Source of the DNA: an uncultured Verrucomicrobiota bacterium
GTDB lineage: Bacteria > Verrucomicrobiota > Verrucomicrobiia > Palsa-1439
DNA length: 64,000 nt
NCBI GenBank assembly: GCA_964541945.1
Contig: CAZISE010000003.1
Coordinates: forward strand, 115,649 to 179,648
Direction of reading: 5' to 3'
This document shows positions 6,119 through 39,077 of the stretch, one piece after another. The position numbers were made by a program, and so were the translations under genes. The notes under the pieces are model-generated. The model was not told where the DNA came from and made no database searches. It saw only the letters and a program-made list of their open reading frames with translations. The stretch's first letter is position 1. Every line of letters begins with the position of its first letter.

Positions 6119-9108
6119 TCCCTCGCAACTGTAAACGACTCGCCGAACTCGATTTCCCCATCGCCACTGTGGGAAAACATGCGATTCGAGAGAAGCCAAT
6201 TGTTCGTAACCATCCACAGTCAATCCAGCAATGGTGGGCACGCCGGCCTCTCGCGGCTTGCCGGGCCGTGCTGCTCGGCCTGCTGTTGCCCGACCCGGCC
6301 GATCCGCTCTGCCCGGCGGAGTTCAAGAGCAAAGCGCGCGAGCTGCTCCGCAAAGTGCCCGGCCGACTCGGCAACACCGACCTCGACCTGCGCAATGCGC
6401 TGCTGAAGTTCATCGGCGATTTCGCCAACTGGGAACTTTCCTCGCACGCCACTTACCTCGAAGTCGGGCGCGGCCTGGTCAAAGCGGCTCACCCGGAAGA
6501 ACCGCCGCTTGTGGTTGACCCGTTTGCCGGCGGCGGCTCGATCCCGCTGGAAGCGTTGCGGCTCGGGTGCGAAGCGTTTGCCTCCGACCTCAACCCCGTT
6601 GCCTGCCTGATCCTGAAGGTGATGCTTGAAGATATTCCCCGGCACGGCCCGCAACTGGCCGAGGAACTGCGGCGTGTCGGCGCGCAAATCAAGGCGGCGG
6701 CCGAACGCGAATTGGCGCAGTATTACCCGGCGGATCCGGATGGGGCGCGGCCGATTGCCTACCTGTGGGCGCGGACGGTGCGGTGCGAATCGCCGCAGTG
6801 CGGCGCCGAAATCCCGCTGGTGCGCTCGTTCTGGCTCTGCAAAAAGACCGACCGCAAACGGGCGCTGCGCCTGGTGCGAGCCGACCGATCCGACCGATCG
6901 GACGGATCCGACCGATCCGTTCGATTCGAGCTGTTCACCCCTGCCCGCGATGACGAGGTGCCGCCCGGCACGGTCTCACGCGCCAATGCAACCTGCCCGT
7001 GTTGCGGTGTGGTGTTGCCGGCGGCGCGGGTGCGGGCGCAACTGGCCGCCCAACGCGGCGGCGCCGATGTGCTCTTTGACGAGCGCGGGCGACGAATCGG
7101 CGGTGCGCGGCTGCTGGCGGTGGTGACACTCAAGGACGGCGAGCCGGGCCGACACTACCGGCTGGCCACCGACCGCGATTACGAACCGGTCTGGCTAGCC
7201 CAACAAGCCGTCGCCCAACTCCCACCCGGCACCGTGCCGGATGAGCCAACGCCCGCCGGTGGCGGGGCAGGAGCAGGCCGCGCCTTCAGTGTCCAACGCT
7301 ACGGCATGCTCCAGTGGGGCGACCTCTTCACCGCCAGACAAAAACTAACTTTGGCTACTCTGGGATCGCTCGTGGGCAGACTGGAAAATGAGATTCATCG
7401 CAAACTTGTGGCATTCGTTCTTTCACGCCTTTCGGATCGACTTGCATCATTGCTCGGCTGGGACGTGGGGGGGGAGAAGTTAGGGCATGTATTTAACAGA
7501 CAAGCGCTCCCAATTGTGTGGGATTACACCGAAGGAGCACCCTTTGCCGACGCGAGCGGGAGCTACCAGAACGTTAAGGAACAAATTGAGGGTGCCGTTG
7601 ACTCTGTTAGTTCCCTCACCCGATCAGGACAAGCCCAAATTGCCGACGCCTGTGCCTCGCCCTTGCCGGATGATGCCTGCAGCGTCTGGTTCACCGATCC
7701 GCCCTACTACGATGCCGTGCCGTATGCCGATCTGTCGGATTTCTTCTTTGTCTGGCTGAAGCGGACATTGCCGGGTCATCCGTTGTTGCGTGACCCGTTC
7801 GACCCGGCCAACCCGCTGACGCCAAAAACACGCGAAGCGGTGCAGGACGAAGTCAAAGAAGCCGACGGTCGCCCGAAGGACAAGGGATGGTTTGAAGAAA
7901 CGATGGCCAAAGCGTTTGCCGAAGGCCGGCGCGTGCTCAAGGACGACGGCATCGGTTGTGTCGTGTTCGCCCACAAAACCACCGAAGGCTGGGAAGCGTT
8001 GTTGTCGGGCATGATCCGCGGCGGCTGGACAATTACCGGTTCGTGGCCGATTGCCACCGAGCGGCCGGGACGGCTGCGCTCGCAAGCGTCCGCTGCACTG
8101 GCGACCAGCGTCCATCTGATTTGCCGGCCGCGCACGGACGACGCGGTGGGCGATTGGAGCGCCGTGTCGCGTGAACTGCCGCAACGTGTGCGGGATTGGA
8201 TGGAGCGGTTGGAGCGTGAAGGCGTGCGCGGTGCTGACCTGGTGTTTGCCTGCATTGGTCCTGCGCTGGAGATTTACAGCCGCTACGCCAAAGTGGTGGA
8301 CGCCGAAGACCGGGAAATCCCGTTGGGCGGCGACTCCGAAGCGCGCGAGCCGCATCGGCGCGGTTTTCTGGCTTACGTCTGGGAAGTGGTCGGCCGCATT
8401 GCGCTGGAGCAGGTGCTCGGCAGCGCCGAAGCACGCGCCACCAACGGCGTTGCCGGCGCGCTGGAAGAAGACGCCCGGTTGACCGCGCTGTTTCTCTGGG
8501 CGCTGCAAACCACTGCCGGCGATCCGCCCGATCTGACCGATCCGACCGATCCGCCCGATCCGTCCGATCAGGAGGAAGAGGAAGCCCCCAAACCTGCGCG
8601 CGGGTTCTCGCTGGTCTTCGACGTGGTGCGCCGGTTCGCCCAGCCGCTGGGGATTCACCTGCCGGACTGGGAAGGGCGGATCATCGCCACCGAGAAAGGC
8701 GTGGTGCGGCTGTTGCCGGTGCATGACCGGGCCGAGCAGTTGTTCGGCAAAGAGGGCGCGCAGGCGATTGCTTCCCGGCTGGAACGGGAAACGCAAGGCG
8801 ACGCGCAGTTGGTGTTGTTCCCCGACCGGCAAGAGGCCGCCGCGCCGCGGGTGCAGGGCCGGCGCCGGCGTAGTCGCGGCGAGGAGGCCGTTGCCACGCA
8901 GCGTGCCGCGACGACGCTGGATCGGGTGCACGCGGCGATGCTGTTGCAGGCCAGCGGCAAGTCGAATGCGTTGCGGGCGATGTTGCAAGCTGAGCGCGAG
9001 CGCGGTCCGGAGTTTCTGCGCTTGGCGAACGCGCTCTCAGCGTTGTATCCTCGCGACAGCGAGGAAAAACGGCTGCTGGACGCCATGCTATTGGCCATGC
9101 CCCGCTAA
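6115..9108 (+). CDS. DUF1156-family Zn-ribbon N6-adenine/N4-cytosine class DNA methyltransferase (DPPY motif)
   Basis: The true start is ATG at 6115 (M I P R N C), overlapping the upstream stop. The listed 5779 start is a frame-overlapping extension. The DUF1156 N-terminus is FPIATVGKHAIREKPIVRNHPQSIQQWWARRPLAACRAVLL. SAM motif I is VVDPFAGGGSIPLEALRLGC and catalytic motif IV is WFTDPPYYDAVPY. The Zn ribbon is CESPQCG...CPCCG. It contains two 9-mer arrays. Confidence 0.8.
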   Translation: MIPRNCKRLAELDFPIATVGKHAIREKPIVRNHPQSIQQWWARRPLAACRAVLLGLLLPDPADPLCPAEFKSKARELLRKVPGRLGNTDLDLRNALLKFIGDFANWELSSHATYLEVGRGLVKAAHPEEPPLVVDPFAGGGSIPLEALRLGCEAFASDLNPVACLILKVMLEDIPRHGPQLAEELRRVGAQIKAAAERELAQYYPADPDGARPIAYLWARTVRCESPQCGAEIPLVRSFWLCKKTDRKRALRLVRADRSDRSDGSDRSVRFELFTPARDDEVPPGTVSRANATCPCCGVVLPAARVRAQLAAQRGGADVLFDERGRRIGGARLLAVVTLKDGEPGRHYRLATDRDYEPVWLAQQAVAQLPPGTVPDEPTPAGGGAGAGRAFSVQRYGMLQWGDLFTARQKLTLATLGSLVGRLENEIHRKLVAFVLSRLSDRLASLLGWDVGGEKLGHVFNRQALPIVWDYTEGAPFADASGSYQNVKEQIEGAVDSVSSLTRSGQAQIADACASPLPDDACSVWFTDPPYYDAVPYADLSDFFFVWLKRTLPGHPLLRDPFDPANPLTPKTREAVQDEVKEADGRPKDKGWFEETMAKAFAEGRRVLKDDGIGCVVFAHKTTEGWEALLSGMIRGGWTITGSWPIATERPGRLRSQASAALATSVHLICRPRTDDAVGDWSAVSRELPQRVRDWMERLEREGVRGADLVFACIGPALEIYSRYAKVVDAEDREIPLGGDSEAREPHRRGFLAYVWEVVGRIALEQVLGSAEARATNGVAGALEEDARLTALFLWALQTTAGDPPDLTDPTDPPDPSDQEEEEAPKPARGFSLVFDVVRRFAQPLGIHLPDWEGRIIATEKGVVRLLPVHDRAEQLFGKEGAQAIASRLERETQGDAQLVLFPDRQEAAAPRVQGRRRRSRGEEAVATQRAATTLDRVHAAMLLQASGKSNALRAMLQAERERGPEFLRLANALSALYPRDSEEKRLLDAMLLAMPR
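6883..6927. repeat. 9-bp GATC tandem repeat array 4 (5 units), encodes DRSDRSDGSDRSVRF inside the methylase Zn-ribbon region
   Basis: gaccgatcc / gaccgatcg / gacggatcc / gaccgatcc / gttcgattc. Confidence 0.8.
8521..8571. repeat. 9-bp GATC tandem repeat array 5 (5.5 units), encodes DPPDLTDPTDPPDPSDQ linker in the methylase
   Basis: gatccgccc / gatctgacc / gatccgacc / gatccgccc / gatccgtcc / gatcag. It uses a different codon phase (DPT) from arrays 1 and 4 (DRS). Confidence 0.8.
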
Positions 9109-9110
9109 AA

Positions 9111-9155
9111 CCGATCCGCCCGATCCGACGGATCCGACTGATAGGACTGATCATG
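9111..9155. repeat. 9-bp GATC tandem repeat array 6 (about 5 units) filling the methylase–ATPase intergenic spacer and running into the ATPase start codon
   Basis: ccgatccgc / ccgatccga / cggatccga / ctgatagga / ctgatcATG. Non-coding except for the last unit. Confidence 0.75.
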
Positions 9156-11906
9156 GAACCCTGGTACAAAATCGTGACGCCGCGCAAAGAAGTCCGGGAG
9201 GGACGATCGTTCAACCCGGACGATTTTGCCATTCATCTGGAACAGGTCGTGGCGGGCAAAGCGCCGGAGGATTACCGGGATGCCCGGCAGTTTTTCGCGC
9301 GGACATGCTGGACGAGCGCCCTGCGCTTGCACGCCGGCATGGTTCTCCGCCGACTGGACGGCAAAACCGAGAACACCTCCCCGGTGATGACGTTGGTGAC
9401 ACAGTTCGGCGGCGGCAAAACCCACACGCTGACGGCGTTGTATCACCTGGCCACAAGCGGCAAAAAAGCCGCCAGCTACCACGGAGTCGAGGACTTGCTC
9501 AAGGAAGCCCGGCTTAGCGAAGTGCCGCAAGCGCGGGTCGCCGTGTTCGTGGGCAACGCCTGGGATCCGCACGAGGGACGCGAGACGCCGTGGATGGATG
9601 TTGCCCGGCAACTGGCGGGCGAGAAGGGCGTAGCATTGCTCGGCAAAGACGCCAAGACCACACCGCCCGGCACCGAGGCGTTGGGCCGGATTTTTGAGGC
9701 GGCCGGCGGGCCGGTGTTGATTCTGTGCGATGAAGTGCTGAATTTCGTCAACCGACATCGCAAACTGGCTGAGCCGTTCCACGCCTTTATCCAGAACCTG
9801 ACGGTCGCCATGACCGGCACGACGCACGGGGCGGCGATGATCAGCCTGCCACGCAGTCAGGTGGAGATGACCGAGTGGGATGCGCAGTGGCAGGACAAGA
9901 TCACCAAGGTCGTTAAACGGGTTGCCAAGGATTTGATTGCCAACGACGAGACGGAAATCAGCGAGGTGGTGCGTCGGCGGTTGTTCGAGGACTTGGGCGA
10001 CGAAAAGATTCTCAAGACGGTGGCCCGAACGTTTGCCCATTGGTGTTTCGAGCGTCGGGCGCAGTTGCCGCCCGAATGGACGGCGGTGGACGTGGCAGCG
10101 ACGGAAGCGAAAGCGAAAGAGTTTTTGCGAAATCGGTTTGAGCGTTGTTATCCGTTTCATCCAGCCACGTTGTCGGTATTTCAGCGCAAATGGCAGACGC
10201 TGCCGCAGTATCAACAGACCCGTGGCACGCTGGCGATGCTGGCGCAGTGGATTTCGTGGGCCTACCGGAACGGGTTCCAACACGCTCGACGCGAGTCGTT
10301 GATCACCATCGGCTCGGCGCCGTTGGATGTGGCGGAGTTCAAGGCGACGGTGTTGGGTCAACTCGGCGAAGCGCGACTGGCGGCGGCGATTGATACCGAT
10401 ATTGCCGGACCGAACTCGCACTGCCGGGCGCTGGATGCCGACACCCGCGGGCCGCTGCGCGACATTCACCGTCGGGTCGGCACAGCGATTCTGTTCGAGT
10501 CGTCAGGCGGCCAGGTCAACCGGGTGGCGCATTTGCCGGAGTTACGGTTTGCCATCGGCGAGCCGGACGTGGAAACAACCTCGGTGGATAACGCGGCGCA
10601 TGCGTTGGAAGCGCGGGCGTTTTTCATCAGCCGGGTCGGCTCGGACGGCTTCCGCATCTATCACAAGGCGACGATCCGAAAGGCGGTGGGCGACCGTCGG
10701 GCGTCGTTGGACGAGGACAGCGAGATCAAACCGGCGATGCGCAAGCTGGTGGAGACGGAGTTTCGGCGGGGAGCAACCGTGCCGCTGGTGCTGTTTCCCG
10801 CGGATGGCAGCGAAGTGCCGGATTCGCCGCGATTGACCGTGGTGGTGCTGGCTCCCGAAACGGAATGGAGCGGGCAGAACCCATTGCGCGCACAGATCGC
10901 CGAGTGGACGAAGCGGCGGGGCAAATCGGATCGGTTGTATCCGGCGGCGTTGGTGTGGTGCGTGAAAAAGCCCGGCCGAGATTTTCGCGAAAAGGTGGAG
11001 TTGTGGCTGGCGTGGAAACGAGTGGCACGGGAAGTGGCCGACGGCACGCTGGGGGCGGATTACGATAAAGCCGACCGGGCAGAGATTGAGGCCAAGGTTC
11101 GAGCTGCCGAAGAGGAAGCCAAAGACGAAGTTTGGGGCAGCTACCGGTATGTGATTGTAGCGGATGGAACGGAAACCGACGGCCTGAAGGTGATTGATCT
11201 CGGTGCCGGTCACGCCAGTAGCCATGAGACGTTGAGTGGACGGGTGATCCTCGCGTTGAAAACGCAAAGCTTGCTCAACGACTCGGTCGGGGCCGGTTAC
11301 CTCGAACGCAACTGGCCGGCGGCGTTGAAGGAGACGGGTGCATGGCCGTTGTCGGGCTTGCGCCAGAGTTTCCTCAACGGATCGCTGACGCGGCTCCTCG
11401 ATCCCGACGCCGTGCTGCGCGGCAAGATTCCCGAATTCGTGGCCCGGGGCGAGTTCGGTCTCGCTTCCGGGCCGAAACCGGACGGCACCTACGAAACCGT
11501 TTGGTTCGAGCAGCCGATTTCAGCGGATGAAGTCATGTTCGAGCCGAATGTGTTCCTGCTGACCAAAACAAAAGCCAGGGCGCTAAAATCCGGTGCGACA
11601 ACGGTGGTGGTTGTCCCACCCGAATCGCCGAAACCTTCGGAACCGCAACCGAAGCCGGAGCCGGGCAAGGAATCAGGCCCGGCGCAACTGGTGATGTTGA
11701 CCCTCAGTGGCAGTGTGCCACCAGAGGTCTGGAATCGGCTCGGCACCAAAATCCTGCCCAAGCTGAAAACCGGCAACAACCTCAAGGTGGACGTCGCTTT
11801 CACCGTAACCGTCAAAGCCGATGTCGCCAAAAGTCTGCGGCCAGACTTGCAGCAGAGTCTCAATGACCTCGGGATCTCCGACAAAGTGCGGATTTCGGAA
11901 AACTGA
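9153..11906 (+). CDS. DUF499-family P-loop ATPase (defence-associated); last gene of the operon
   Basis: 917 aa. The Walker A region is VMTLVTQFGGGKTHTLTALYHL, which I recognise as the DUF499 signature. There is a Walker B-like LILCDEV. The long C-terminal region lacks other recognisable domains. Confidence 0.75.
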   Translation: MEPWYKIVTPRKEVREGRSFNPDDFAIHLEQVVAGKAPEDYRDARQFFARTCWTSALRLHAGMVLRRLDGKTENTSPVMTLVTQFGGGKTHTLTALYHLATSGKKAASYHGVEDLLKEARLSEVPQARVAVFVGNAWDPHEGRETPWMDVARQLAGEKGVALLGKDAKTTPPGTEALGRIFEAAGGPVLILCDEVLNFVNRHRKLAEPFHAFIQNLTVAMTGTTHGAAMISLPRSQVEMTEWDAQWQDKITKVVKRVAKDLIANDETEISEVVRRRLFEDLGDEKILKTVARTFAHWCFERRAQLPPEWTAVDVAATEAKAKEFLRNRFERCYPFHPATLSVFQRKWQTLPQYQQTRGTLAMLAQWISWAYRNGFQHARRESLITIGSAPLDVAEFKATVLGQLGEARLAAAIDTDIAGPNSHCRALDADTRGPLRDIHRRVGTAILFESSGGQVNRVAHLPELRFAIGEPDVETTSVDNAAHALEARAFFISRVGSDGFRIYHKATIRKAVGDRRASLDEDSEIKPAMRKLVETEFRRGATVPLVLFPADGSEVPDSPRLTVVVLAPETEWSGQNPLRAQIAEWTKRRGKSDRLYPAALVWCVKKPGRDFREKVELWLAWKRVAREVADGTLGADYDKADRAEIEAKVRAAEEEAKDEVWGSYRYVIVADGTETDGLKVIDLGAGHASSHETLSGRVILALKTQSLLNDSVGAGYLERNWPAALKETGAWPLSGLRQSFLNGSLTRLLDPDAVLRGKIPEFVARGEFGLASGPKPDGTYETVWFEQPISADEVMFEPNVFLLTKTKARALKSGATTVVVVPPESPKPSEPQPKPEPGKESGPAQLVMLTLSGSVPPEVWNRLGTKILPKLKTGNNLKVDVAFTVTVKADVAKSLRPDLQQSLNDLGISDKVRISEN

Positions 11907-11970
11907 TACTGAGCGCCCCGAGGTATGGGCGGCAGTCTTGAGCATGCAGCGTGTCCGCGATGATCGCACT

Positions 11971-14400
11971 CTACCGGTGGCCGGTCAGCGCCACATGGAG
12001 GACGTCGTCCACGGTTTCGACGGGGATCAGTTTTAGTTTGGCACGGGCGTCGGCAGGGATGTCGGGCAAATCCTTTTCGTTGTGTTTGGGGATGATGACC
12101 GTTTTGATGCCGGCCCGCAACGCCGCCAGGCTCTTCTCTTTCAAGCCGCCAATCGGCAACACCAAGCCGCGCAAGGTGATTTCGCCGGTCATCGCCACGT
12201 CGGCGCGAACCGGCCGATCGCTAAACAGCGACGCAATCGCCGTGAACATCGCCACACCCGCCGACGGGCCATCTTTCGGCACGGCACCGGCCGGGACGTG
12301 GATGTGGAGGTCGGTGTCTTTGAAGGCATCGGGTTCAATGCCGAGTTCTTTGGCGCGGGCTTTGACCAGACTCAAGGCGGCTTGAGCACTTTCTTTCATC
12401 ACGTCGCCAATCTGGCCGGTCAGCAGGATGTTGCCCTTGCCGGGGTAACGAATGGCTTCGATGTGCAGAATGTCGCCGCCGGTCGGTGTCCACGCCAGGC
12501 CGGTGACGACGCCGGGTTTGCTGGTGGCGAGTTTGGTTTCGCGGATGTACTTGGGCGGGCCGAGGATTTTCTCGACTTCCGTCGGGGTGATGGTTGTTTC
12601 GGTGATTTCGTTGCGAGCGACGCGGGCAGCGACGGCGCGGCAGATGGCGGCGATCTGGCGTTCGAGTTCGCGCACGCCGGCTTCGCGGGTGTAATCGTCA
12701 ATGATCCGGCGCAGGGCAGCCGTCTCGAATTTGCACTGGCCGTTTTTGAGTCCGTGTTCTTTGAGCTGGCGTTTGACCAGATAGCGGCGGGCGATTTCGA
12801 GTTTCTCGCGGTCGGTGTAGCCGGGCAATTCGATGACTTCCATGCGGTCGCGGAGCGCGGGCGGGACGGTGTCCATCATGTTGGCGGTGCAGATGAACAT
12901 GACCTGCGACAGATCAAACGGCACATCGAGGTAATGATCGTTGAAGGTGTTGTTCTGGCGCGGGTCGAGCACTTCGAGCAGCGCGCTGGCCGGGTCGCCG
13001 CGGAAATCGGCGCCGACCTTGTCAATTTCGTCGAGCATCAGGACCGGGTTTCGGGAACCGCAACGCCGGATTTCCTGGATGATGCGGCCCGGCATGGAGC
13101 CGATGTAGGTGCGGCGGTGGCCGCGGATTTCGGCTTCGTCATGGACACCGCCGAGCGACATGCGGGCGAACTTGCGGCCGAGGGCGTCGGCGATGGATTG
13201 GCCGAGGGAGGTTTTGCCGACGCCGGGCGGGCCGAGGAAACAGAGGATCGGGCCGTGACCGGTCGGGTTGAGTTTGCGGACGGCGAGGTATTCGATGAGG
13301 CGGCGTTTGACTTTTTCGAGGTCGTAATGGTCGCGGTCGAGGATTTTCTGGGCGCGGTCGAGGTCGAGGTTGTCGGTGGTGAGTTTGTTCCAGGGCAGTT
13401 CGGCGATGGTTTCGACGTAGCTGACGATGACGGCGTATTCGGGGCTGGCCGGATGGAGGTGACCGAGCCGGCGCAATTCGCGTTCGGCCTGTTCCATGAC
13501 GGCGGCGGGCGGGGCGGCTTCTTCGAGTTTTTTGCGAAGATTGGCGATTTGTTCTTCGACGCCGCCTTCGGCTTCGCCGAGTTCTTTTTGGATGGCGCGG
13601 AGTTGTTCGCGCAGGACGACTTTGCGTTGTTGGTCGCCGAGTGAGGAGGAGACATCTTTTTGGATTTTCTGCTGGAGGCGTGCGATTTCGAGCTGGCCGG
13701 TGACGGCGCGGAGCACGCCGCGGACGCGTTTGGGGATGTCGAGTTCTTCCAGCAACGCTTGTTTTTGGGGCACATCGAGGTTGATGCTGCCGGCGAGGAA
13801 ATCGGACAGCGCGCCGGGGTCTTCGATGTTGAGGATGACCATTTTGACCGGCTCGGATTCTTCGAGGGTCAGTTCGACGAGTTTCAGCGCGGAGTCGCGC
13901 AGGCCCTGGACGGCGGCTTCAAATTCCTTGTCGCCGGTGGGGGCGGGTTTGGATTCCAAGGGCTGAACTTCGGCGCGCAAATAGGGTTGGGTGGCCAGCA
14001 CGCGGCGCAGGGCGACCCGTTGGATGGCTTGCACAACCACGACGAGTTGGTCGGGGGATGGCCGCAACAGTTTCAACACCGTGGCGGCCACGCCGACGGG
14101 ATAGATTTCTTCGGGTGTTGGGTCGTCGGTTTTGGGGTCTTTCTGGGCGAAGACGCCGATGATTTTGTTTTGTGGGAGGGTGTCCTCGATCAACTGGCGC
14201 GAGCCGGGCCGGCCGATGGTCAGCGGGGTAACCATGCCGGGGAACAGGACGGTGTTGCGGATGGGCAGGATCGGCAACGCGCGCGGCAACCCGCTGGACG
14301 GTTCGGTTTCGGGCGACGACGGCGCGGCGTTATCGTTCGTCGCGCCGGGCGGCGGCGTGTCGGAGGCGACCGGGAAGGTGAAATACGGGGAGAGGCTCAC
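11971..14400 (-). CDS. lon: ATP-dependent protease Lon
   Basis: Lon N-domain LPILPIRNTVLFPGMVTPL, AAA+ Walker A GPPGVGKTSLGQSIA, protease serine PKDGPSAGVAMFTAIASL. The ORF extends to 14463, but a GTG at 14398-14400 overlaps the upstream Hsp20 stop (GTGA) and sits just before the conserved N-domain. The start is therefore uncertain (14400 or 14463). Confidence 0.85.
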   Translation of the reverse strand: MSLSPYFTFPVASDTPPPGATNDNAAPSSPETEPSSGLPRALPILPIRNTVLFPGMVTPLTIGRPGSRQLIEDTLPQNKIIGVFAQKDPKTDDPTPEEIYPVGVAATVLKLLRPSPDQLVVVVQAIQRVALRRVLATQPYLRAEVQPLESKPAPTGDKEFEAAVQGLRDSALKLVELTLEESEPVKMVILNIEDPGALSDFLAGSINLDVPQKQALLEELDIPKRVRGVLRAVTGQLEIARLQQKIQKDVSSSLGDQQRKVVLREQLRAIQKELGEAEGGVEEQIANLRKKLEEAAPPAAVMEQAERELRRLGHLHPASPEYAVIVSYVETIAELPWNKLTTDNLDLDRAQKILDRDHYDLEKVKRRLIEYLAVRKLNPTGHGPILCFLGPPGVGKTSLGQSIADALGRKFARMSLGGVHDEAEIRGHRRTYIGSMPGRIIQEIRRCGSRNPVLMLDEIDKVGADFRGDPASALLEVLDPRQNNTFNDHYLDVPFDLSQVMFICTANMMDTVPPALRDRMEVIELPGYTDREKLEIARRYLVKRQLKEHGLKNGQCKFETAALRRIIDDYTREAGVRELERQIAAICRAVAARVARNEITETTITPTEVEKILGPPKYIRETKLATSKPGVVTGLAWTPTGGDILHIEAIRYPGKGNILLTGQIGDVMKESAQAALSLVKARAKELGIEPDAFKDTDLHIHVPAGAVPKDGPSAGVAMFTAIASLFSDRPVRADVAMTGEITLRGLVLPIGGLKEKSLAALRAGIKTVIIPKHNEKDLPDIPADARAKLKLIPVETVDDVLHVALTGHR

Positions 14401-14831
14401 GTGGCATGCTCCTGGGCGGGATGAATGGTTTGGGCGGGCCGGGCCAACGGCAGCGTGATCCACAACAGCCCGTCACGATATACCGCCGTCACCCGCTCGG
14501 CGTCCACCGAATGCGGCAGTTCCAGCGCCCGTTCAAACGGGCCGTAATCAATCTCCATCATCAGCAACCGGGCCGCGCGTCCTTCCTGGGGCGGCGGTTC
14601 GGGCGCGGGGCGTGTGCCCGAAACGATCAGGCGCCGCGCCTCGACGCGCACGGAAATGTCTTTGCGATCCATGCCGGCCAGATCGAAACAGATGACAAAT
14701 CGGTCGTGGAGCCGGTAGGCATTGACGGCGGGCCGCCACTGGGCGGTGGCGCTGAACGCGCCGAGCGCGCCGCGGCGTAGTTCCGCGGCCAGGCGGTTCA
14801 TTTCCGCGTGGAGCCGTTCAAATTCATTCAT
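14397..14831 (-). CDS. Hsp20/alpha-crystallin small heat-shock protein
   Basis: This is the C-terminal 145 aa of listed ORF 14397..15539, starting at ATG ~14829-14831 (MNEFERLHAEMNRL...). The alpha-crystallin domain is WRPAVNAYRLHDRFVICFDLAGMDRKDISVRVEARRLIVSG...GLLWITLP. The start overlaps the MarC stop (ATGA). Confidence 0.8.
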   Translation of the reverse strand: MNEFERLHAEMNRLAAELRRGALGAFSATAQWRPAVNAYRLHDRFVICFDLAGMDRKDISVRVEARRLIVSGTRPAPEPPPQEGRAARLLMMEIDYGPFERALELPHSVDAERVTAVYRDGLLWITLPLARPAQTIHPAQEHAT

Positions 14832-15472
14832 GACGCACCTCCTCCGGCGATCAGGCCGAGCGATTGCAGGGCATTGATGGCAAACTGTACCGCCACTGCC
14901 GCCAACAGCAGTCCCATCAGGCGCGTGACCAGCCGCATTGCCAGCGGGCTGAGCTGACGCGCGCCGCGGGCGGCCACCGCCAATATGACATAACTGGCGG
15001 CGGCCACCAACCCGATACTGACAAACAACGCCGCGCGTTGGGCCATGGTTTGGGCCTGGTGCATGAGAATCAACGCGGTCGAAATCGCGCCCGGTCCGGC
15101 CAGCATCGGCACGGCCAGCGGCGTGATCGCGATGTCGTCCTTGGCCGCGCCGGCGTCGCGTTCCTCGTCGGTTTCCCGCGCGGCGGAACGGCGAGCGTAC
15201 AACATGTCCAACGCGATCCGCAGCAACAACAGGCTGCCGGCAATCTGGAAAGCGGGCAACGTGATGCCCAGAAACCGGAAAATCCACGGCCCGGCCAGCG
15301 CGAACACCGCCAGCACGCCCGCCGACACGACGGCAGCCAGCCGCGCCATCCGCAGCCGGTCGGCGGTGGAATCGGTCGGCGTCATGGCCAGAAAAGCCGG
15401 CACGGCCGCGATCGGGTCCACAATCACGAACAGCGAACTGACGGCCAGCAGACTGTACTCGACCAGTGTCAT
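14828..15472 (-). CDS. MarC-family (UPF0056) integral membrane protein
   Basis: 214 aa, six predicted TM segments. Family-typical stretches are LFVIVDPIAAVPAF and AITPLAVPMLAGPGAIST. Confidence 0.75.
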   Translation of the reverse strand: MTLVEYSLLAVSSLFVIVDPIAAVPAFLAMTPTDSTADRLRMARLAAVVSAGVLAVFALAGPWIFRFLGITLPAFQIAGSLLLLRIALDMLYARRSAARETDEERDAGAAKDDIAITPLAVPMLAGPGAISTALILMHQAQTMAQRAALFVSIGLVAAASYVILAVAARGARQLSPLAMRLVTRLMGLLLAAVAVQFAINALQSLGLIAGGGAS

Positions 15473-15653
15473 CCGAATTCCTTTTCGCCGCTCTACCGCT
15501 CTGCCGCGCGGCTCGTTTCTTCCCTCCCATGATTACCAAAAAAACGCCGCGATCACCAACGGTTTTGACCGGCGCGGGACGACCACTCTCGTCGTCCGTT
15601 CATGACCACGGCGAACAAGCAGCCGGTGCGCTCCGCTCTTTTTGTTCCCATCT

Positions 15654-16568
15654 TCATGCCGTTTCATGCGTCATTTCCCAGCGCAACCGCGTTTGCACGG
15701 CGCCGATCAACATTTCCACCTCCTTGCGAGAGCGTTTCAGCAACATCGCCACCTCGTCCGGCTCGAAACCTTCGACAAAATACAACTCAAACACCGCCCG
15801 TTCCTCTGCCGGCCAGTTTTGGGCGGCGTGTTGGAGGTGTTCCAGCCAGTCTTTGCGCGCCGCTGCGGCATCGGGCGCCGTTTCGATCGTCGGTTCCACC
15901 GGCGCCGTCTCGCGGGCGTCCTCGCGCCAGGCGCGGAGACGGCGCTGCAACTCGCGTCGGGCCAGCTCGTACAGCCATACCCGGTAAGTGCGGTCGTCCG
16001 GTTTCTCCCACGGCGCGGCCAGGGCCTGCCGGGCCGTTTCATCCACAACGGCGCGGGCGTCCAGCGCGCCCGGCGGCAGTTCGCCGGTCAGTTCGTGTTG
16101 CCGCAACAGACGCCGAACATGCCGCAACAACGCAGCCTGTTCGCGTTCCAGCCATTGTGCCACCACGTCGCGCGCGGTTTGCGGGCCGCTGCCCGGCGCC
16201 ATCGGTTCGGGCGCAAACCCGGCGCTGAGCGATGGACGGCGTTCCCTGCGTTTCCACTGCGACGCGCCGCGGAGTTTTTCCTTGAGCCTCTCCAACTCGC
16301 GCAGCAGCGTTTTCACCGCTTCACCGAACGCCTCGATAAGGTCGTTGGAGGTCTTTTCACTGCGCAGGATGTTGCTGGGGATGCGCAGGGTCAGCGTGGC
16401 GGTGAACAACGGTTTCCTGGGCGACCGTTTCAGCGCGATGTGCAAGTGGACCGTGTCGGGCGGGAAATGTTTCAGGTGCCGTTCCAGTTTGCCGATTTTC
16501 TGGCGGAGTTTTTTCCGCAGAAAATCGTCCTCGCTGACGTTTTCGGTTACGATGTTCCAACGGATCAT
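15654..16568 (-). CDS. fusion protein: N-terminal HPF/YfiA (ribosome hibernation, S30AE) domain + C-terminal ECF-type sigma-70 regions 2 and 4
   Basis: The likely start is ATG ~16566-16568 (MIRWNIVTENVSEDDFLRKKLRQKIGKLERHLKHF...DLIEAFGEAVKTLLRELERLKEKLR), preceded by GGAGG. This N-domain parallels the standalone HPF at 46241-46573 segment by segment. The C-terminal part has sigma region 2-like (DETARQALAAPW...YRVWLYELARRELQRRLR) and region 4 HTH (AEERAVFELYFVEGFEPDEVAMLLKRSRKEVEMLIGAVQTRLR) segments. The listed ORF extends to 16760 with an Arg/Gly-rich N-extension that is probably not translated. Confidence 0.6.
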   Translation of the reverse strand: MIRWNIVTENVSEDDFLRKKLRQKIGKLERHLKHFPPDTVHLHIALKRSPRKPLFTATLTLRIPSNILRSEKTSNDLIEAFGEAVKTLLRELERLKEKLRGASQWKRRERRPSLSAGFAPEPMAPGSGPQTARDVVAQWLEREQAALLRHVRRLLRQHELTGELPPGALDARAVVDETARQALAAPWEKPDDRTYRVWLYELARRELQRRLRAWREDARETAPVEPTIETAPDAAAARKDWLEHLQHAAQNWPAEERAVFELYFVEGFEPDEVAMLLKRSRKEVEMLIGAVQTRLRWEMTHETA

Positions 16569-17050
16569 ACCGATTCCTCCCTGTTGGCGGGTTGACCCCG
16601 TGACACGTGAGGTTTGAGCGCCTGGAGCAATTCCCGTTGGCCGGCCTTGACCAGATCGCGCGGAATGGTTTTCTCCACCCGGCGTCGGACCGGGGCCGGC
16701 AGCTCGTCGAAGATCGGGCGGCCGATTTCCTTGTGCGCCACCAGCCACACGCCGTCGCAACCGCTCTCCCGCGCCAGCCGGGTCGTGTGGCGGGCGATTT
16801 GTTTGATGAGGCGGCGTCGGAGTTCCAATCGCAGATTATGGTCGTCGGCCATCGGGGCGCCCCATTTGTGTTGGGTGGGCGAGACGTGGCGGCCGGCGAG
16901 ATCGGCCACTTCATCCAGCAACCGGCGATGGGCTTCTTCCAGGCGCACCTGCTCGATCGGCCCCAACCGCGGCGTGCCGCGTGGCGTGGTTTCCAGCCGA
17001 TAGGCTTTCAACAGGCCGAGGTCGGTGACGATTATCAGTTTGTTGTTCAT
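16565..17050 (-). CDS. host-attachment-protein-like (PF10116; bacterial eRF1-like 'baeRF') family protein
   Basis: 161 aa. MNNKLIIVTDLGLLKAYRL...DDHNLRLELRRRLIKQIARHTTRLARESGCDGVWLVAHKEIGRPIFDELPAPVRRRVEKTIPRDL resembles the Host_attach family in layout. The stop overlaps the downstream HPF-sigma start (ATGA). Confidence 0.45.
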   Translation of the reverse strand: MNNKLIIVTDLGLLKAYRLETTPRGTPRLGPIEQVRLEEAHRRLLDEVADLAGRHVSPTQHKWGAPMADDHNLRLELRRRLIKQIARHTTRLARESGCDGVWLVAHKEIGRPIFDELPAPVRRRVEKTIPRDLVKAGQRELLQALKPHVSRGQPANREESV

Positions 17051-17111: not shown

Positions 17112-18695
17112 TTATTTCACGCGCAGCACGACGTAGAGGCTGGCGTCCTTGCGTTTGACGAGCAACAACGCGGTGTCCCTGGAATGGGCCAGCGCCTCAC
17201 GCAACTCGCCGATCGTGGCGACCGGCTGGCGGTTGGCCTCGACGATGAGATCACCGCGCCGCAATTGCGCCGCCTCGGCGGGACTGTCCTCGGCAACGTC
17301 GGTGATGAGCAGTCCCCTGGCGTTTTTGTCGTAACCGAACTCCTCGGCGAGAGCGGGCGTCACAGGTTGGACCGTCAGGCCGAATCGGTCGAGGGTGCCG
17401 CCCTTGCCGGTGTCGGCGGCGGCCATTTTTTCGGGAGTCAGTTCGCCGATGGTGACGGTGAGCGTTTTTTCCCTGCCGTCGCGGCGGATGGTCAGTTCGG
17501 CTTTGGCGCCGGGGGCGGTGGCGGCGACGGCGTTGCGCAACTCGCGGGTGTCGGCCACGGGTTTGTCCTGGTATTTGATGATGACGTCGCCGGGTTTGAT
17601 GCCGGCCTTGTCGGCGGGAGAATCTTTGTTGACCTGGGAGACAAGGGCGCCCTTGGTGTCGGCGAGTTTGAATTGGTCGGCGAGTTCCTCGGTGATGTCC
17701 TGGATGATCACGCCGAGGAAACCGCGTGTGACGGTTTGGCCTTTGAGCAGGGTGGGCATCATGTGTTTGGCCATGTTGATGGGGATGGCGAACCCGACGC
17801 CGGCGAATTGGCCGATGGGCGTGGCGATGGCGGTATTGATGCCGATGACTTCGCCGCGCATGTTCACGAGCGGGCCGCCGGAGTTGCCGGGGTTGATGGC
17901 GGCGTCGGTTTGAATGAAGTCCTCGTAATCGGCAATACCGACATCGGCGCGGCCGACGGCGCTGATGATGCCGGCGGTGACGGTTTGGGCGAGGCCGAAC
18001 GGCGCACCGATGGCCAGGACCCAATCGCCGACTTTCAGCGTGTCGCTGTCGCCGAGCGAGGCCACCGGCAGATCGCGCGGGACGCGGCCTTTGATTTTGA
18101 TGATGGCGACATCGGTTTTCTCGTCGCGGCCAACGATTTCGGCGTCAAAGGTCCGTTTGTCGGCAAGTTGGACCTTGATTTTGTCCACGTCGCGGACAAC
18201 GTGGTTGTTGGTAAGGATGTGGCCGTCTTTGTCCACAATAATGCCGGAGCCTTGACCGCGTTGCGGGATGCGGTACTCGCGGGGTGCAGGCTGCGAGCGA
18301 CGGCGAGGGAGTTCCCGGCCAAAAAACCGCTCAAAGAAGTCCTCGCCAAAAGGAAATTCCCAGTCCCAACTGCGGAAACGGACGGTTTTCTCCGAGTACA
18401 CGCTGACCACGGCTGGTTTGACGTGGGCAGCAACGGCTTCGAAGGCTTTGCTCAGGTCGCGGGCCGGCGCGGTAACCGATTCGTCGAGCGCGGCTTGCGC
18501 GGGCGCGACGAGCAGGCCGATCAGGATCAGGACGCGGATGGCGGACGTTTTGAGCGTGGGATGCGACAGAAAACCGTGAATTCGGTCAGTCGTTCTGCAG
18601 AGTGGAACATCCATTTTGGTTGTCCGTTCGGGCGACGGGCAAGTTGGAAACTTGTCCCACTTTAACTCTGGCAACATGGCGTTGGTGGTTTTCAT
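17112..18695 (-). CDS. HtrA/DegP-family periplasmic serine protease with two PDZ domains
   Basis: Catalytic His region GSGIIVDKDGHILTNNHVV, Asp region and serine GNSGGPLVN. There are two PDZ-like C-terminal segments and an N-terminal signal/TM IRVLILIGLLVAPAQA. A purine-rich RBS lies before the ATG at 18695. An alternative ATG exists at ~18614. Confidence 0.85.
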   Translation of the reverse strand: MKTTNAMLPELKWDKFPTCPSPERTTKMDVPLCRTTDRIHGFLSHPTLKTSAIRVLILIGLLVAPAQAALDESVTAPARDLSKAFEAVAAHVKPAVVSVYSEKTVRFRSWDWEFPFGEDFFERFFGRELPRRRSQPAPREYRIPQRGQGSGIIVDKDGHILTNNHVVRDVDKIKVQLADKRTFDAEIVGRDEKTDVAIIKIKGRVPRDLPVASLGDSDTLKVGDWVLAIGAPFGLAQTVTAGIISAVGRADVGIADYEDFIQTDAAINPGNSGGPLVNMRGEVIGINTAIATPIGQFAGVGFAIPINMAKHMMPTLLKGQTVTRGFLGVIIQDITEELADQFKLADTKGALVSQVNKDSPADKAGIKPGDVIIKYQDKPVADTRELRNAVAATAPGAKAELTIRRDGREKTLTVTIGELTPEKMAAADTGKGGTLDRFGLTVQPVTPALAEEFGYDKNARGLLITDVAEDSPAEAAQLRRGDLIVEANRQPVATIGELREALAHSRDTALLLVKRKDASLYVVLRVK

Positions 18696-19417
18696 GATGC
18701 CTTCCTTTCTCCCGTGGTATGGGTTGAGGGTTGGTTGTTGGCAGCGGCGTGTTCATCGGATTCGAGGGCGCCGACGAGTTTGTCGGTCTCGGCGAGGACC
18801 CGTTCGATATGTTGACGAATGTCCTGGGCCTGGGCGCGGACGGCGTTGATGGCCTCGGCGAGGGTGCGTTTCAGCAGATCGAATTGCTCATCGTAGGCGT
18901 GGTCGGCACGCATGGTTTCGCGGGCCAGAGCCAGGAGCGCGGTGGCTTCGTCGAGCCGTTTTTCGGCGCGCGGCAATTCGCCGGCCTTGGCGTGTCGAAT
19001 GGCCAGGACGGCAGCCGCCTTGGCAAACAACAGCGAGCCGCGGGCCTCGATACGGCGAACGCGGCGACGCAATTCGACCTCGACGCGGTGAGCCGTGGCG
19101 AGGGCGGAGGTGCGGGCGGTTTTCAGTCCTTCCTCCAGGTGTTGTTCGAGGGCGGCGAGTTGTTGGGTGGCGCGGTGGAGTTGTTGCGCCACTTCGTCAA
19201 TGGCCTCGCTCTTGAGCTGCTGCAAGCCCTCGGCGGTTTGCCGCAAGCTCAGGCGGCTTTGCTCGTAGGCGTCCTCCAATAGAAAAAGTAAGGTATCAGT
19301 GAGTTCTTTTTGTTTGGCGCGCACTTGATCGAGGTCGCGTTGGCCGCCGGCGCGCCACCAGGCGAGTGCGGCCACGGCGAGGCTGATCAGGGAAATCAGC
19401 AAAGCAATCCATTCCAT
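18692..19417 (-). CDS. membrane-anchored coiled-coil protein (hypothetical)
   Basis: The likely start is ATG ~19415-19417 (MEWIALLISLISLAVAALAWW), preceded by GGAGGTGAAATCGTG. One N-terminal TM helix is followed by ~200 aa of Ala/Glu/Arg-rich predicted coiled coil. The listed ORF start 19513 is an upstream extension. Confidence 0.4.
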   Translation of the reverse strand: MEWIALLISLISLAVAALAWWRAGGQRDLDQVRAKQKELTDTLLFLLEDAYEQSRLSLRQTAEGLQQLKSEAIDEVAQQLHRATQQLAALEQHLEEGLKTARTSALATAHRVEVELRRRVRRIEARGSLLFAKAAAVLAIRHAKAGELPRAEKRLDEATALLALARETMRADHAYDEQFDLLKRTLAEAINAVRAQAQDIRQHIERVLAETDKLVGALESDEHAAANNQPSTHTTGERKAS

Positions 19418-19500: not shown

Positions 19501-19527
19501 GAAAAGTGGGCACAGGACTCAGCCCAC
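19501..19527 (-). terminator. rho-independent terminator of the Hsp20 gene
   Basis: On the minus strand: GTGGGC-tgagtcctgt-GCCCAC followed by TTTTC. The hairpin overlaps the Hsp20 stop codon. Confidence 0.5.
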
Positions 19528-19974
19528 TTTGACTTCGATCTGTTTGGGTTTGGCTTCTTCGGCCTTGGGTAGTGTGATCTCCAGCACGCCGTCGCGGAAA
19601 TGCGCGTCAATCTTGCCGGCATCCACTGCCACGGGCAGTTGGATGGTACGGGTGAAAGTGCCGGAGACGCGTTCCTGGGCGTAATAGGTGGCATCCTTGG
19701 GCGCGGAGAGCTTGCGCTCGCCTTTGACCGTGAGGACGCCTTCCTGGAGGGTCACACTCACGTCTTCCTTCCGCAACCCTGGGAGATCAAGTTGAACGAC
19801 CAGTTTGTCCTTTTCCTCGTAGAGGTCGCACGGGGCGAGGAATTCGGATTCAAACGCCCGACGGCTGCGACGCAATGAGGTGTCGAACAGCCGGTTCATT
19901 TCCTCCTGGATCTCGGCCAGGGTGCCGAACGGATCCCACAGATCGGTTCTCGGACTCCAACGTACCAATGCCAT
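19519..19974 (-). CDS. Hsp20/alpha-crystallin small heat-shock protein
   Basis: 151 aa. ...LAPCDLYEEKDKLVVQLDLPGLRKEDVSVTLQEGVLTVKGER...GVLEITLPK is a classic alpha-crystallin domain. Confidence 0.85.
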   Translation of the reverse strand: MALVRWSPRTDLWDPFGTLAEIQEEMNRLFDTSLRRSRRAFESEFLAPCDLYEEKDKLVVQLDLPGLRKEDVSVTLQEGVLTVKGERKLSAPKDATYYAQERVSGTFTRTIQLPVAVDAGKIDAHFRDGVLEITLPKAEEAKPKQIEVKVG

Positions 19975-20494
19975 AGATCATCTCCTCCTTTCGATTGCTT
20001 GTTTGTTTCCGAAAACCTCGCTTAGCACCGCCGATGCCAGCGCATCCGATGGTTTTTGTTATTACTTGGCTATAAAGTAGATGCAACAACGCGATCACAA
20101 TTAAGCATTGACGGCGGTGTGCCAGTTTGACCTTTGGTATGCGAGACACTGTTTACGTGTTGTGTCAGCCGTTCACATCTTGAACTTCAGTGTCCCGTTT
20201 CCAACTATTTCTGGCTGAGTAGCGTAGTGTACAAACCGAACCACCATAAGTCAGGTATTGGGGGCTACTCGATTCCACGTAATCGCGTGTTCGGTTTCGC
20301 GTAGATGCGTTTGTGGTCAAAGTCGTATGATGCGGAAAAAGCGTCAGGGCAAGAGCATTGTTAAATCGTCCGCACGATAATTTCGGTGAAGATGCTGTGG
20401 GCATGGGTGACGGTGTTGGTCGTAGCGATGATTGTCGTAACGATCATCGTTCTGAGAACCGTTACCGGTCTGCATAAAAAAACAGAATTTTCTT

Positions 20495-38595: not shown

Positions 38596-38961
<366 letters not shown>

Positions 38962-39059: not shown

Positions 39060-39077
39060 AGCAAGGGGGGTGCCAGC
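39060..39077 (-). promoter_or_regulatory. sigma-54 (-24/-12) promoter upstream of glnB–glnA
   Basis: The minus strand reads GCTGGCACCCCCCTTGCT, which is TGGCAC-N5-TTGC with canonical GG-N10-GC spacing. It is ~125 nt upstream of the glnB ATG. An NtrC-family sigma-54 activator is encoded at 53515-54909. Confidence 0.45.

Follow-up and report, generated by a model that had tools for sequence, protein, structure and literature searches.

The window, the 64,000 nt stretch of DNA that was analysed, carries a real, conserved gene (Table 1) whose product combines a ribosome-hibernation domain with a diverged sigma-factor-like domain and which lies within a stress operon. An earlier note had taken such a fusion to be undescribed, which is now out of date: HPF chimeras fused to 'SigE', which occur beside Balon genes and alongside a canonical HPF, are mentioned in a November 2025 preprint (bioRxiv 10.1101/2025.11.04.686544), in a single sentence that cites one example (E. 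coli plasmid pEc78) and leaves the sigma part, promoters and operons unanalysed. That chimera and the fusion described here share an HPF N-terminal domain that lacks the dimerisation domain and is joined to a sigma-E-like domain, and in both cases a canonical HPF coexists (here 46241-46573) and a Balon-type gene adjoins (here 16565-17050). To this already mentioned class the present analysis adds the heat-shock/proteostasis context, the sigma-54-type promoters and the divergence of the sigma clade. A Cupriavidus sigma-factor paper and the ECF reclassification paper are silent on an HPF-sigma fusion, and the latter makes no mention of a ribosomal or HPF extension.

Architecture and conservation of the fusion gene

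The ORF runs from the ATG at 16568-16566 to the stop at 15654-15656 with zero internal stops, which bears out the start, the GGAGG ribosome-binding site and the uninterrupted frame between the two domains that the earlier note had reported. It had also advised a check for a frameshift artefact and a search for homologues of the same architecture; more than 150 full-length homologues were found, covering 96-100 % of the query, and because these exist, and the 304-residue product is identical on two independent assemblies, an artefact is excluded. That misassembly or a sequencing frameshift merged separate hpf and sigma genes, an idea for which no supporting point was found, is thus vanishingly improbable, since the conserved architecture extends to Betaproteobacteria and invariant residues lie within the linker itself, and sequence comparison may be said to have refuted it already.

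Most of the homologues are from Verrucomicrobiota, cultured Limisphaera strains among them, with distant ones on Burkholderiaceae megaplasmids; those of Betaproteobacteria (Paraburkholderia) share the full-length architecture. A tblastn search of the PLSDB plasmids with the fusion protein of the window gave zero matches at E<=1e-3, and a more typical family member (P0012) was needed as query to reach the Burkholderiaceae homologues. No E. coli plasmid is among the matches listed for P0012 at E<=1, and the pEc78 chimera is likened to the verrucomicrobial fusion by its described architecture.

The N-terminal domain is a genuine HPF domain, as two profiles agree: Ribosomal_S30AE (PF02482) matches residues 5-100 with 47.4 bits (cut-off 23.7) and TIGR00741 (yfiA) matches with 43.6 bits (cut-off 40.9). 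AlphaFold2 predicts a beta-alpha-beta-beta-beta-alpha fold for residues 3-101 that is superposable on ribosome-bound HPF/RaiA, with Foldseek TM scores of 0.8-0.89 to solved HPF/RaiA structures. Sequence family and fold are thus those of canonical HPF/RaiA (YfiA); the N-terminal domain of Listeria HPF is 31-32 % identical to the fusion model (Foldseek) and is matched by the fusion family profile at 41 bits. This half is also the most conserved domain of the family. The 'feature-for-feature' correspondence that had been claimed with the stand-alone short HPF of the same genome holds at the level of fold and profile only, where both proteins pass the HPF model, since BLASTP gives no alignment between them. 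The fusion departs from canonical HPF/RaiA beyond this domain: there is no Ribosom_S30AE_C-type match to the long-HPF C-terminal dimerisation domain, which is replaced by a sigma2-sigma4 module, the RaiA-type tail is absent too, and the locus is a heat-shock operon rather than the rpoN/hpf locus.

The two halves are joined by a linker of about 30 residues, and not some 40 as first estimated. It contains a conserved basic motif (W105 K106 R107 .. R110 R111 .. L114) and the Gly/Pro-rich residues F118, P122, G126 and G128-P129-Q130; of these, W105, R107, R110, R111 and L114 are invariant, Paraburkholderia homologues included (alignments A1-A3). After this low-confidence segment (102-131), AlphaFold2 predicts a three-helix domain (132-220) and a four-helix one (232-302), to which Foldseek matches the ECF sigma factors SigH, SigL, CnrH, EcfG, AlgU and sigmaE. 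The proposal of one polypeptide with HPF and sigma2/sigma4-fold modules is borne out by the ORF, the HPF profiles and the predicted structure.

Table 1. Coordinates of the fusion gene, its parts and neighbouring features in the window
Feature	Position	Strand	Basis or remarks
Inverted repeat TGACAC-N12-GTGTC	20145..20167	-	Some 105 nt 5' of the -24 element; possible site for an enhancer-binding protein
Sigma-54-type promoter TGGCATCGGCGGTGCT (GG-N10-GC)	20024..20039	-	About 50 nt 5' of the hsp20 ATG
Hsp20, first gene of the operon	19519..19974	-	PF00011, 88.7 bits
Predicted membrane-anchored coiled-coil protein	18692..19417	-	ORF; no significant Pfam match
HtrA/DegP-type serine protease, two PDZ domains	17112..18695	-	Pfam Trypsin_2, PDZ
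Host_attach/baeRF family 12 gene (core-only aeRF1/Balon-like, 161 aa)	16565..17050	-	Upstream of the fusion
Ribosome-binding site GGAGG of the fusion	16576..16580	-	7 nt 5' of the ATG; read from sequence
HPF-sigma-like fusion CDS	15654..16568	-	ORF and translation; 304 aa plus stop
HPF/YfiA (S30AE) domain, aa 3-101	16266..16562	-	
Basic motif and Gly/Pro-rich linker, aa 102-131	16176..16265	-	Alignments A1-A3; low pLDDT (AlphaFold2)
Sigma2-like three-helix domain, aa 132-220	15909..16175	-	
Short sigma2-sigma4 linker, aa 221-231	15876..15908	-	Alignment A1
Sigma4-like four-helix HTH domain, aa 232-302	15663..15875	-	Profiles, segment conservation, hhalign to sigmaE
Terminator-like: two hairpins and T-run 3' of the fusion stop	15538..15597	-	Sequence; terminator-scan match 15561-15545
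MarC-family membrane protein	14828..15472	-	PF01914, 179 bits
Second Hsp20, 4-nt overlap with marC	14397..14831	-	PF00011, 63.6 bits; gene calls of identical locus L001
Lon protease, 4-nt overlap with hsp20	11971..14400	-	Lon_C, LON_substr_bdg, AAA; start from L001
Stand-alone canonical short HPF, 110 aa, same genome	46241..46573	-	ORF; TIGR00741, 53.8 bits (cut-off 40.9)

Operon context and promoters

The genes are arranged in the order hsp20, coiled-coil, htrA, baeRF12 and fusion, followed by marC-hsp20-lon, and Pfam confirms the Hsp20-Lon-HtrA cluster that had been recognized around the fusion. The baeRF12 gene, whose TGA overlaps the fusion ATG (ATGA), encodes a product that matches PF10116 (47.7 bits, cut-off 26.7) and PF18856 (29.2 bits, cut-off 27.7), together with weak NCBIfam matches to mycobacterial hibernation-factor (RHF) families; that to the MSMEG_1130 family is confined to the central part, with a score of 18 bits against 480. 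The 161-residue product corresponds to the aeRF1-superfamily core domain alone and not to the full three-domain Balon architecture. Balon/baeRF-1 genes are known to neighbour HPF/RaiA in stress operons (PMC10901736; PMC6514570), and a description of Balon stress operons containing Hsp20, MarC, RaiA and sigma factors dates from 2024. As in those operons, in which Hsp20, MarC, DnaJ/DnaK and alternative sigma factors are typical neighbours, an aeRF1-family gene here lies by an HPF/RaiA gene, although the aeRF1-like protein is the core-only form and HPF and sigma are one polypeptide.

This setting recurs in the family, which sits in heat-shock/proteostasis operons of two phyla. Hsp20, HtrA, Lon, MarC or baeRF12 genes are on the strand of the fusion in 25 of the 34 related loci, the Pfam-annotated neighbourhoods also include FtsH, DnaJ, GrpE, MerR-family (HspR-like) and ClpB genes, and the Paraburkholderia homologues are flanked by hsp20 genes and groES-groEL-dnaK. 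A 141-aa protein encoded upstream of the fusion in locus L003 was considered as a Host_attach relative and rejected on BLASTP.

The fusion operons of Verrucomicrobiota are headed by sigma-54-type promoters. The pattern has two matches in the window, the second of which precedes glnB-glnA, and 9 of the 11 strict matches at related loci are located 54-186 nt upstream of the hsp20 start. The inverted repeat further upstream has a single match in the window, which alone is not significant; loci L005, L008 and L049 have similar TGACAC/GTGTCA repeats 5' of hsp20. A search for a linked enhancer-binding protein by its GAFTGA motif succeeded only for L022 and for the window, where it lies 35 kb away. 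A scan for consensus sigma-70 promoters between 11800 and 20600 found nothing. Enumeration of bipartite motifs (5-mer plus 4-mer, spacer 13-20), a crude search within +/-6 kb, revealed no ECF-type promoter motif in 220 predicted intergenic regions; the sole standout was GGCAT-N6-TGC, which is of sigma-54 type, and over whole loci the enumeration returned GC-rich noise only. Local promoters are sigma-54- or sigma-32-like.

Divergence of the sigma-like half

The C-terminal half had been described as an ECF-type sigma-70 factor, a designation of which the fold stands, whereas the curated profile cut-offs were failed, the -35 contacts are absent and no ECF-type promoter was found. The fusion has the two-domain organization of ECF (group 4) sigma factors, sigma2 and sigma4 only, joined by a linker with no sigma3. 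Its profile matches all fall below the cut-offs: TIGR02937 (sigma70-ECF) matches residues 147-287 with 30.1 bits (E 3e-7, cut-off 42.9), Sigma70_r4_2 scores 18.5 bits (cut-off 25.7) and PhyR_sigma-like 21.8 bits (cut-off 27). The profile check suggested for this half thus gave sub-threshold matches to Sigma70_r4_2 and TIGR02937 but none to Sigma70_r2, which is matched by one of the 28 family members; PhyR_sigma-like matches 24 of the 28 (best E 1e-7). The Paraburkholderia homologue in locus L047 exceeds the Sigma70_r4_2 cut-off, some verrucomicrobial relatives have precomputed or sub-threshold matches to that profile, and NCBI or JGI records label some members as sigma factors. Alignment with sigmaE by hhalign has an E-value of 3.8e-5. 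A set of 1.84 billion representative proteins contains only 243 relatives of the sigma half at E<=1e-3. The sigma module forms a small clade, deeply diverged, in which the recognition helix is relaxed.

Most homologues carry an additional acidic insert of about 45 residues at the sigma2-sigma4 linker (alignment A1). Its WhiG/FliA profile matches led to its being considered as a degenerate sigma3, which was rejected, the insert of P0012 being predicted by AlphaFold2 to be disordered. The conserved Trp of region 2.3 and the beginning of region 4 are 55 residues apart in the fusion and 66 in sigmaE.

Conservation within this half is uneven. Region 2.2, region 4.1 and the first HTH helix have entropies of 0.77-0.88 bits, and the invariant positions include motifs of working sigma factors, V-V-D-E in region 2.2, W198 and Y200 in region 2.3, and E-R-E-x-F-x-L...G....E-x-A in regions 4.1/4.2. 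The helices at 252-277 are nearly invariant, whereas the recognition helix (281-293) is the least conserved structured segment, with an entropy of 2.31 bits, 0 of 13 positions at >=90 % and a variability equal to that of the disordered linker. The sigmaE residues R171/S172/R173, which contact the -35 element, correspond by hhalign to E285/M286/L287 in the fusion, although the Paraburkholderia members retain an R-x-R-L pattern in this helix. By eye, Q/R and R apparently stand where region 2.4 canonically has N and D (alignment A1).

Possible roles of the fusion protein

What was observed is the architecture of the protein, its conservation across the family, the genomic context, the type of promoter and the pattern of conservation; from these we infer that it binds ribosomes and also RNA polymerase or some other partner, and in which direction regulation runs. 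We tentatively favour a chimeric, stress-induced ribosome-hibernation factor whose sigma-derived half would be a module that docks RNA polymerase or some other partner. The N-terminal domain would be an intact 30S-binding domain of HPF/RaiA type, with the diverged ECF-like sigma2-sigma4 module in place of the long-HPF dimerisation domain. The protein would be expressed within the proteotoxic-stress operon from the putative sigma-54-type promoter at its head, with probable translational coupling to the Balon-like gene, and in stressed cells the HPF domain, probably acting with the Balon-like partner, would occupy the decoding region of the ribosome and silence it. The sigma fold and the helices that contact core or anti-sigma appear to be under strong selection and the DNA-reading residues do not, which argues that the sigma half would dock a protein (RNA polymerase core or a sigma antagonist) and would not act as a promoter-specific ECF sigma factor. 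Such docking would connect translational shutdown to the transcription machinery.

Contact of the sigma half with RNA polymerase would make the fusion a direct protein link from ribosome hibernation to transcription; to our knowledge, no such link has been characterized. A physical bridge, with the HPF domain in the decoding site of an idle ribosome and the sigma half on the polymerase core, is an unlikely but specific form of this idea, and if true the state of the ribosome pool in proteotoxic stress would be read out directly in transcription. The bridge might be a sigma factor freed by the ribosome from a closed, auto-inhibited form, or a competitor of sigma by which polymerase is parked on ribosomes in hibernation. 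Because cultured Limisphaera strains carry homologues, these hypotheses are open to experiment.

Three observations sit uneasily with a docking module. Some sigma-like relatives stand alone with no HPF domain, one of them beside hsp20, and the sigma module would thus have a function of its own, more naturally a transcriptional one; the invariant motifs of regions 2.2, 2.3 and 4.1/4.2 are typical of working sigma factors; and Paraburkholderia members pass the Sigma70_r4_2 cut-off with R-x-R-L in the recognition helix. A serious, if less likely, rival is that the protein is a true alternative sigma factor, its availability gated by the HPF domain, which would direct a second-tier stress regulon downstream of sigma-54 under the control of ribosome occupancy. 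Idle ribosomes might sequester the fusion, or ribosome binding might free an auto-inhibited closed form. The TIGR02937 and sigmaE alignments, the invariant motifs, the stand-alone relatives and the sigma-factor annotations are consistent with such a gated sigma factor, as is the fact that 'alternative sigma70 factors' are listed as usual Balon-gene neighbours; in the AlphaFold2 model of the long-linker homologue P0012, moreover, the sigma2/sigma4 arrangement resembles that of anti-sigma-bound ECFs (TM 0.6-0.67) and not the holoenzyme forms (0.30-0.35). The variable recognition helix and the lost -35 contacts speak against it, as do the apparent region 2.4 replacements, the scores below curated sigma thresholds and local promoters of sigma-54 or sigma-32 type. 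ECF sigma factors differ in these respects, and neither an ECF-type autoregulated promoter nor an evident anti-sigma gene or family was found, the latter in the Pfam-annotated neighbourhoods of related loci.

Degenerate DNA-reading residues are also to be expected of a sigma mimic, and PhyR, like the fusion, couples a sigma2/sigma4-fold module of this kind to another input domain. That the fusion titrates a NepR-type anti-sigma factor, and so frees another stress sigma factor, is nevertheless improbable. The PhyR_sigma-like matches, widespread as they are in the family, are limited to the sigma4 part and fall below the cut-off in the window protein; the receiver (Response_reg) domain is absent, its place as input being taken by an HPF domain in the reverse, N-terminal, order; and no NepR-like or EcfG-like gene was seen within +/-6-10 kb in the annotated neighbourhoods.

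The chances are slighter still that the HPF-like domain has lost ribosome binding and only extends the sigma module, as a cis-inhibitory (anti-sigma-like) or nucleic-acid-binding segment. Regulatory extensions of ECF sigma factors are known, C-terminal in ECF41/42 and N-terminal and inhibitory in, for example, SigC and BldN (PMC7826278), and the P0012 model is compact (pTM 0.73), with extra helices at residues 110-124 after the HPF domain; the N-terminal domain is, however, canonical HPF by sequence and fold and the best-conserved part of the protein, and the adjoining Balon-like gene points to ribosomes. The compact sigma2/sigma4 form of the same model lends weak support to both ideas of the earlier note, that ribosome state is coupled to transcription and that the HPF domain acts as a cis anti-sigma module. 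An HPF/RaiA domain has also been found fused to CBS in archaeal HibA/Hib (PMC13324472), which differ from the fusion in the partner domain and belong to another domain of life.

The fusion gene and its family

The fusion gene is the single stop-free ORF that the earlier note had read, with GGAGG seven bases ahead of its ATG; the ATG shares bases with the TGA of the upstream gene, and this ATGA overlap suggests translational coupling. The claim of an N-terminal HPF domain is confirmed, since residues 5-100 score above the cut-offs of both Ribosomal_S30AE (47.4 bits; cut-off 23.7) and TIGR00741 yfiA (43.6 bits; cut-off 40.9). Its proposed feature-for-feature likeness to the stand-alone HPF of this genome (46241-46573, corrected here to the minus strand) holds in that both pass the HPF model, but blastp aligns nothing between the two. 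Assignment of the C-terminal half to the ECF-type sigma-70 factors stands by fold but not by profile: Sigma70_r4_2 (18.5 bits; cut-off 25.7), PhyR_sigma-like (21.8 bits; cut-off 27) and TIGR02937 sigma70-ECF (30.1 bits; cut-off 42.9; residues 147-287, E 3e-7) all remain sub-threshold, and Sigma70_r2 has no match in the protein. An AlphaFold2 model (mean pLDDT 79) has four parts, and Foldseek matches its N-domain to ribosome-bound HPF/RaiA structures (TM 0.8-0.89) and its C-terminal half to the ECF sigmas SigH, SigL, CnrH, EcfG, AlgU and sigmaE.

Features of the fusion gene, its product and its surroundings (entropy in bits across 120 sequences)
Feature	Position	Strand	Remarks
hsp20	19519-19974	-	first in minus-strand order
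membrane coiled-coil protein, predicted	18692-19417	-	N-terminal membrane helix and long coiled coil; between hsp20 and htrA
htrA	17112-18695	-	
Host_attach/baeRF12	16565-17050	-	directly before fusion
fusion CDS	15654-16568	-	304 codons, no internal stop
sigma-54-type promoter, putative	20024-20039		50 nt before hsp20 ATG; pattern match
canonical sigma-54 promoter TGGCACCCCCCTTGCT, predicted	39060-39075	-	before glnB 38596-38934 (-) and glnA 37150-38559 (-)
beta-alpha-beta-beta-beta-alpha	residues 3-101		AlphaFold2
low-confidence linker	residues 102-131		AlphaFold2
three-helix domain	residues 132-220		AlphaFold2
four-helix domain	residues 232-302		AlphaFold2
HPF domain			1.05 bits
region 2.2			0.88 bits
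disordered linker	residues 214-231		2.12 bits
region 4.1			0.84 bits
first HTH helix			0.77 bits
recognition helix	residues 281-293		2.31 bits; 0/13 positions at least 90 % conserved

A frameshift or misassembly, the artefact against which the earlier note had warned, is excluded by an identical protein in two independent assemblies and by a conserved family of at least 154 homologues in a collection of 5.8 billion proteins. The 120 homologues listed (300-390 aa, 90-100 % query coverage) come mostly from Verrucomicrobiota MAGs and are named at source 'HPF/RaiA family' or 'sigma-70 family sigma factor', and 36 loci were found in GTDB species genomes, including those of two cultured Limisphaera strains. 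Distant homologues (28-29 % identity, 83-90 % coverage), annotated as 'sigma-28' or 'sigma factor-like HTH', are carried by megaplasmids of Paraburkholderia, Caballeronia and Cupriavidus. That of Paraburkholderia phenoliruptrix exceeds the cut-offs of both S30AE (24.7 bits; cut-off 23.7) and Sigma70_r4_2 (28.8 bits; cut-off 25.7) and aligns with the fusion over its whole length, the post-HPF motif W..R..RR..L included; the fusion is therefore old and spans two phyla.

The earlier note was not aware of a described fusion, but a November 2025 preprint (10.1101/2025.11.04.686544) names some 'long HPFs' without a dimerisation domain that are fused instead to Csp, SigE or CBS, and reports such chimeras alongside canonical HPF, often adjoining Balon genes. 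The architecture is therefore already on record; the ECF reclassification paper mentions no HPF extension.

Heat-shock neighbourhood and promoters

The gene order of the window bears out the reported Hsp20-Lon-HtrA cluster; 3′ of the fusion a hairpin-rich gap of 180 nt is followed on the minus strand by marC, hsp20 and lon with 4-nt overlaps. The fusion stop is followed, at 15538-15597 (-), by two hairpins, one of them perfect (7 bp, GGACGAC...GTCGTCC) and the other accompanied by a T-run; they suggest a terminator or attenuator before marC-hsp20-lon. Of 34 non-redundant related loci, 25 have one or more of Hsp20, HtrA, Lon, MarC and baeRF12 no more than 6 kb away, on the same strand in nearly every case; Pfam-annotated neighbourhoods also contain FtsH, DnaJ, GrpE, a MerR-family (HspR-like) regulator, ClpB, rhomboid, M50-CBS protease, YfdX and thioredoxin. 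The coiled-coil protein has no family match, and small unannotated ORFs fill the same slot in related loci (L043 5653-5826 and 7531-7776). Burroughs and Aravind (PMC6514570) described a conserved neighbourhood of HPF with baeRF-1 families, core-only ones included, and proposed joint translational shutdown; co-binding of ribosomes by Balon and RaiA has been shown, and typical Balon neighbours are Hsp20, DnaK/DnaJ, MarC, RaiA and alternative sigma70 factors (PMC10901736).

The Paraburkholderia homologue lies between three hsp20 genes and groES-groEL-dnaK; this 383-aa protein belongs to a plasmid-borne paralogous chaperone island (L047, P. phenoliruptrix pSYMBR3459, 2622-12310; also L046). Carbonic anhydrase and PTS_EIIA_2 (PtsN-like) genes follow the fusion in one lineage (L003 9056-10121; P0099, also in a >1-Mb contig), recalling the proteobacterial rpoN-hpf-ptsN order. 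In one metagenomic locus (L045 11913-13148) a phage-type integrase and toxin-like genes directly follow an hsp20-dnaJ-Host_attach-fusion cluster, which hints that such clusters may be mobile.

Two sites in the 64-kb window fit the sigma-54 pattern TGGCAY-N6-TGCW (GG-N10-GC). The only exact match besides that at hsp20 precedes the genes for PII (glnB) and glutamine synthetase (glnA); as this pair is a classical sigma-54 target, the hsp20 call gains in credibility. Strict matches number 11 in the related loci, where chance would give 2.4, and in nine cases an hsp20 start lies 54-186 nt downstream. An NtrC-type sigma-54 activator (53491-54909 (+); receiver, Sigma54_activat and HTH_8) demonstrates sigma-54 use by this genome but is located 35 kb from the heat-shock cluster, to which activators are not linked. 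When bipartite motifs were crudely enumerated over 220 intergenic regions, this sigma-54 motif emerged and no ECF-like one did; the Paraburkholderia cluster has a sigma-32-like CTTGAAA-N14-CCTATCAT (L047 ~4643-4672). The fusion thus looks like a heat-shock regulon member driven by resident systems rather than an autoregulated sigma. In several lineages TGACAC/GTGTCA repeats precede the sigma-54-type hsp20 promoters by about 100 nt (window 20145-20167 (-), L005, L008, L049 400-440) and may be enhancer-binding-protein sites; the stand-alone sigma-like relative of L049 follows an hsp20 with the same sigma-54-like promoter and repeats.

The sigma-derived half and the role of the protein

Searched alone against 1.84 billion representatives, the sigma part (residues 132-304) found only 243 proteins at E<=1e-3; far more would be expected for a typical ECF sigma. 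About 60 of the best 150 matches are 300-400-aa fusions (match beginning near residue 135-150). A few complete sigma-like proteins without an HPF domain also exist (P0127, P0129, P0133, P0168). The segment entropies make the recognition helix the least conserved structured segment. hhalign pairs the family profile with residues 47-174 of Escherichia coli sigmaE (probability 71 %, E 3.8e-5), placing T169-V170-R171-S172-R173-I174 opposite E283-V284-E285-M286-L287-I288 of the fusion. R171, S172, F175 and R176 reportedly contact DNA in the 2006 sigmaE4/-35 structure of Lane and Darst, and their equivalents in the fusion are not conserved.

By every computable mark the HPF half, where constraint is strongest, is predicted to be a working ribosome binder. 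In the sigma half the fold and the generic sigma motifs are retained, but the DNA-reading residues are not conserved, and no anti-sigma partner or cognate promoter was detected for it. These features lead us to favour, tentatively, a hibernation factor that would be induced by stress, its HPF half serving hibernation through predicted binding to ribosomes and its sigma-derived half perhaps docking, again by prediction, on RNA polymerase core or another partner. A serious but somewhat less probable alternative is a ribosome-gated true sigma: stand-alone sigma-like relatives beside hsp20 (as after it at L049 648-2022), the invariant motifs of regions 2.2, 2.3 and 4.1 and a closed, anti-sigma-bound-like model speak for it, whereas the unconserved DNA-reading residues, and the failure to find an anti-sigma partner or cognate promoter, speak against it. 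The earlier observation is confirmed, and its interpretation is borne out in part. A PhyR-like mimic is improbable, and a purely cis-inhibitory HPF-like domain still more so.

The closed arrangement is that of long member P0012 (pTM 0.73), whose sigma2/sigma4 pair superposes on anti-sigma-bound CnrH/CnrY (TM 0.67) and SigW/RsiW (TM 0.62-0.67) and not on holoenzyme-bound forms (TM 0.30-0.35). Between sigma2 and sigma4 most family members have a ~45-aa acidic insert with a conserved G-Y-D-x-E-Q-P-L-D(-I) motif; it is disordered in the P0012 model, which rules out a sigma3 domain. The window subclade (P0001-P0009, 303-315 aa) has mostly or wholly lost this insert, at 15876-15908 (-) (columns ~252-295 of family alignment A1).
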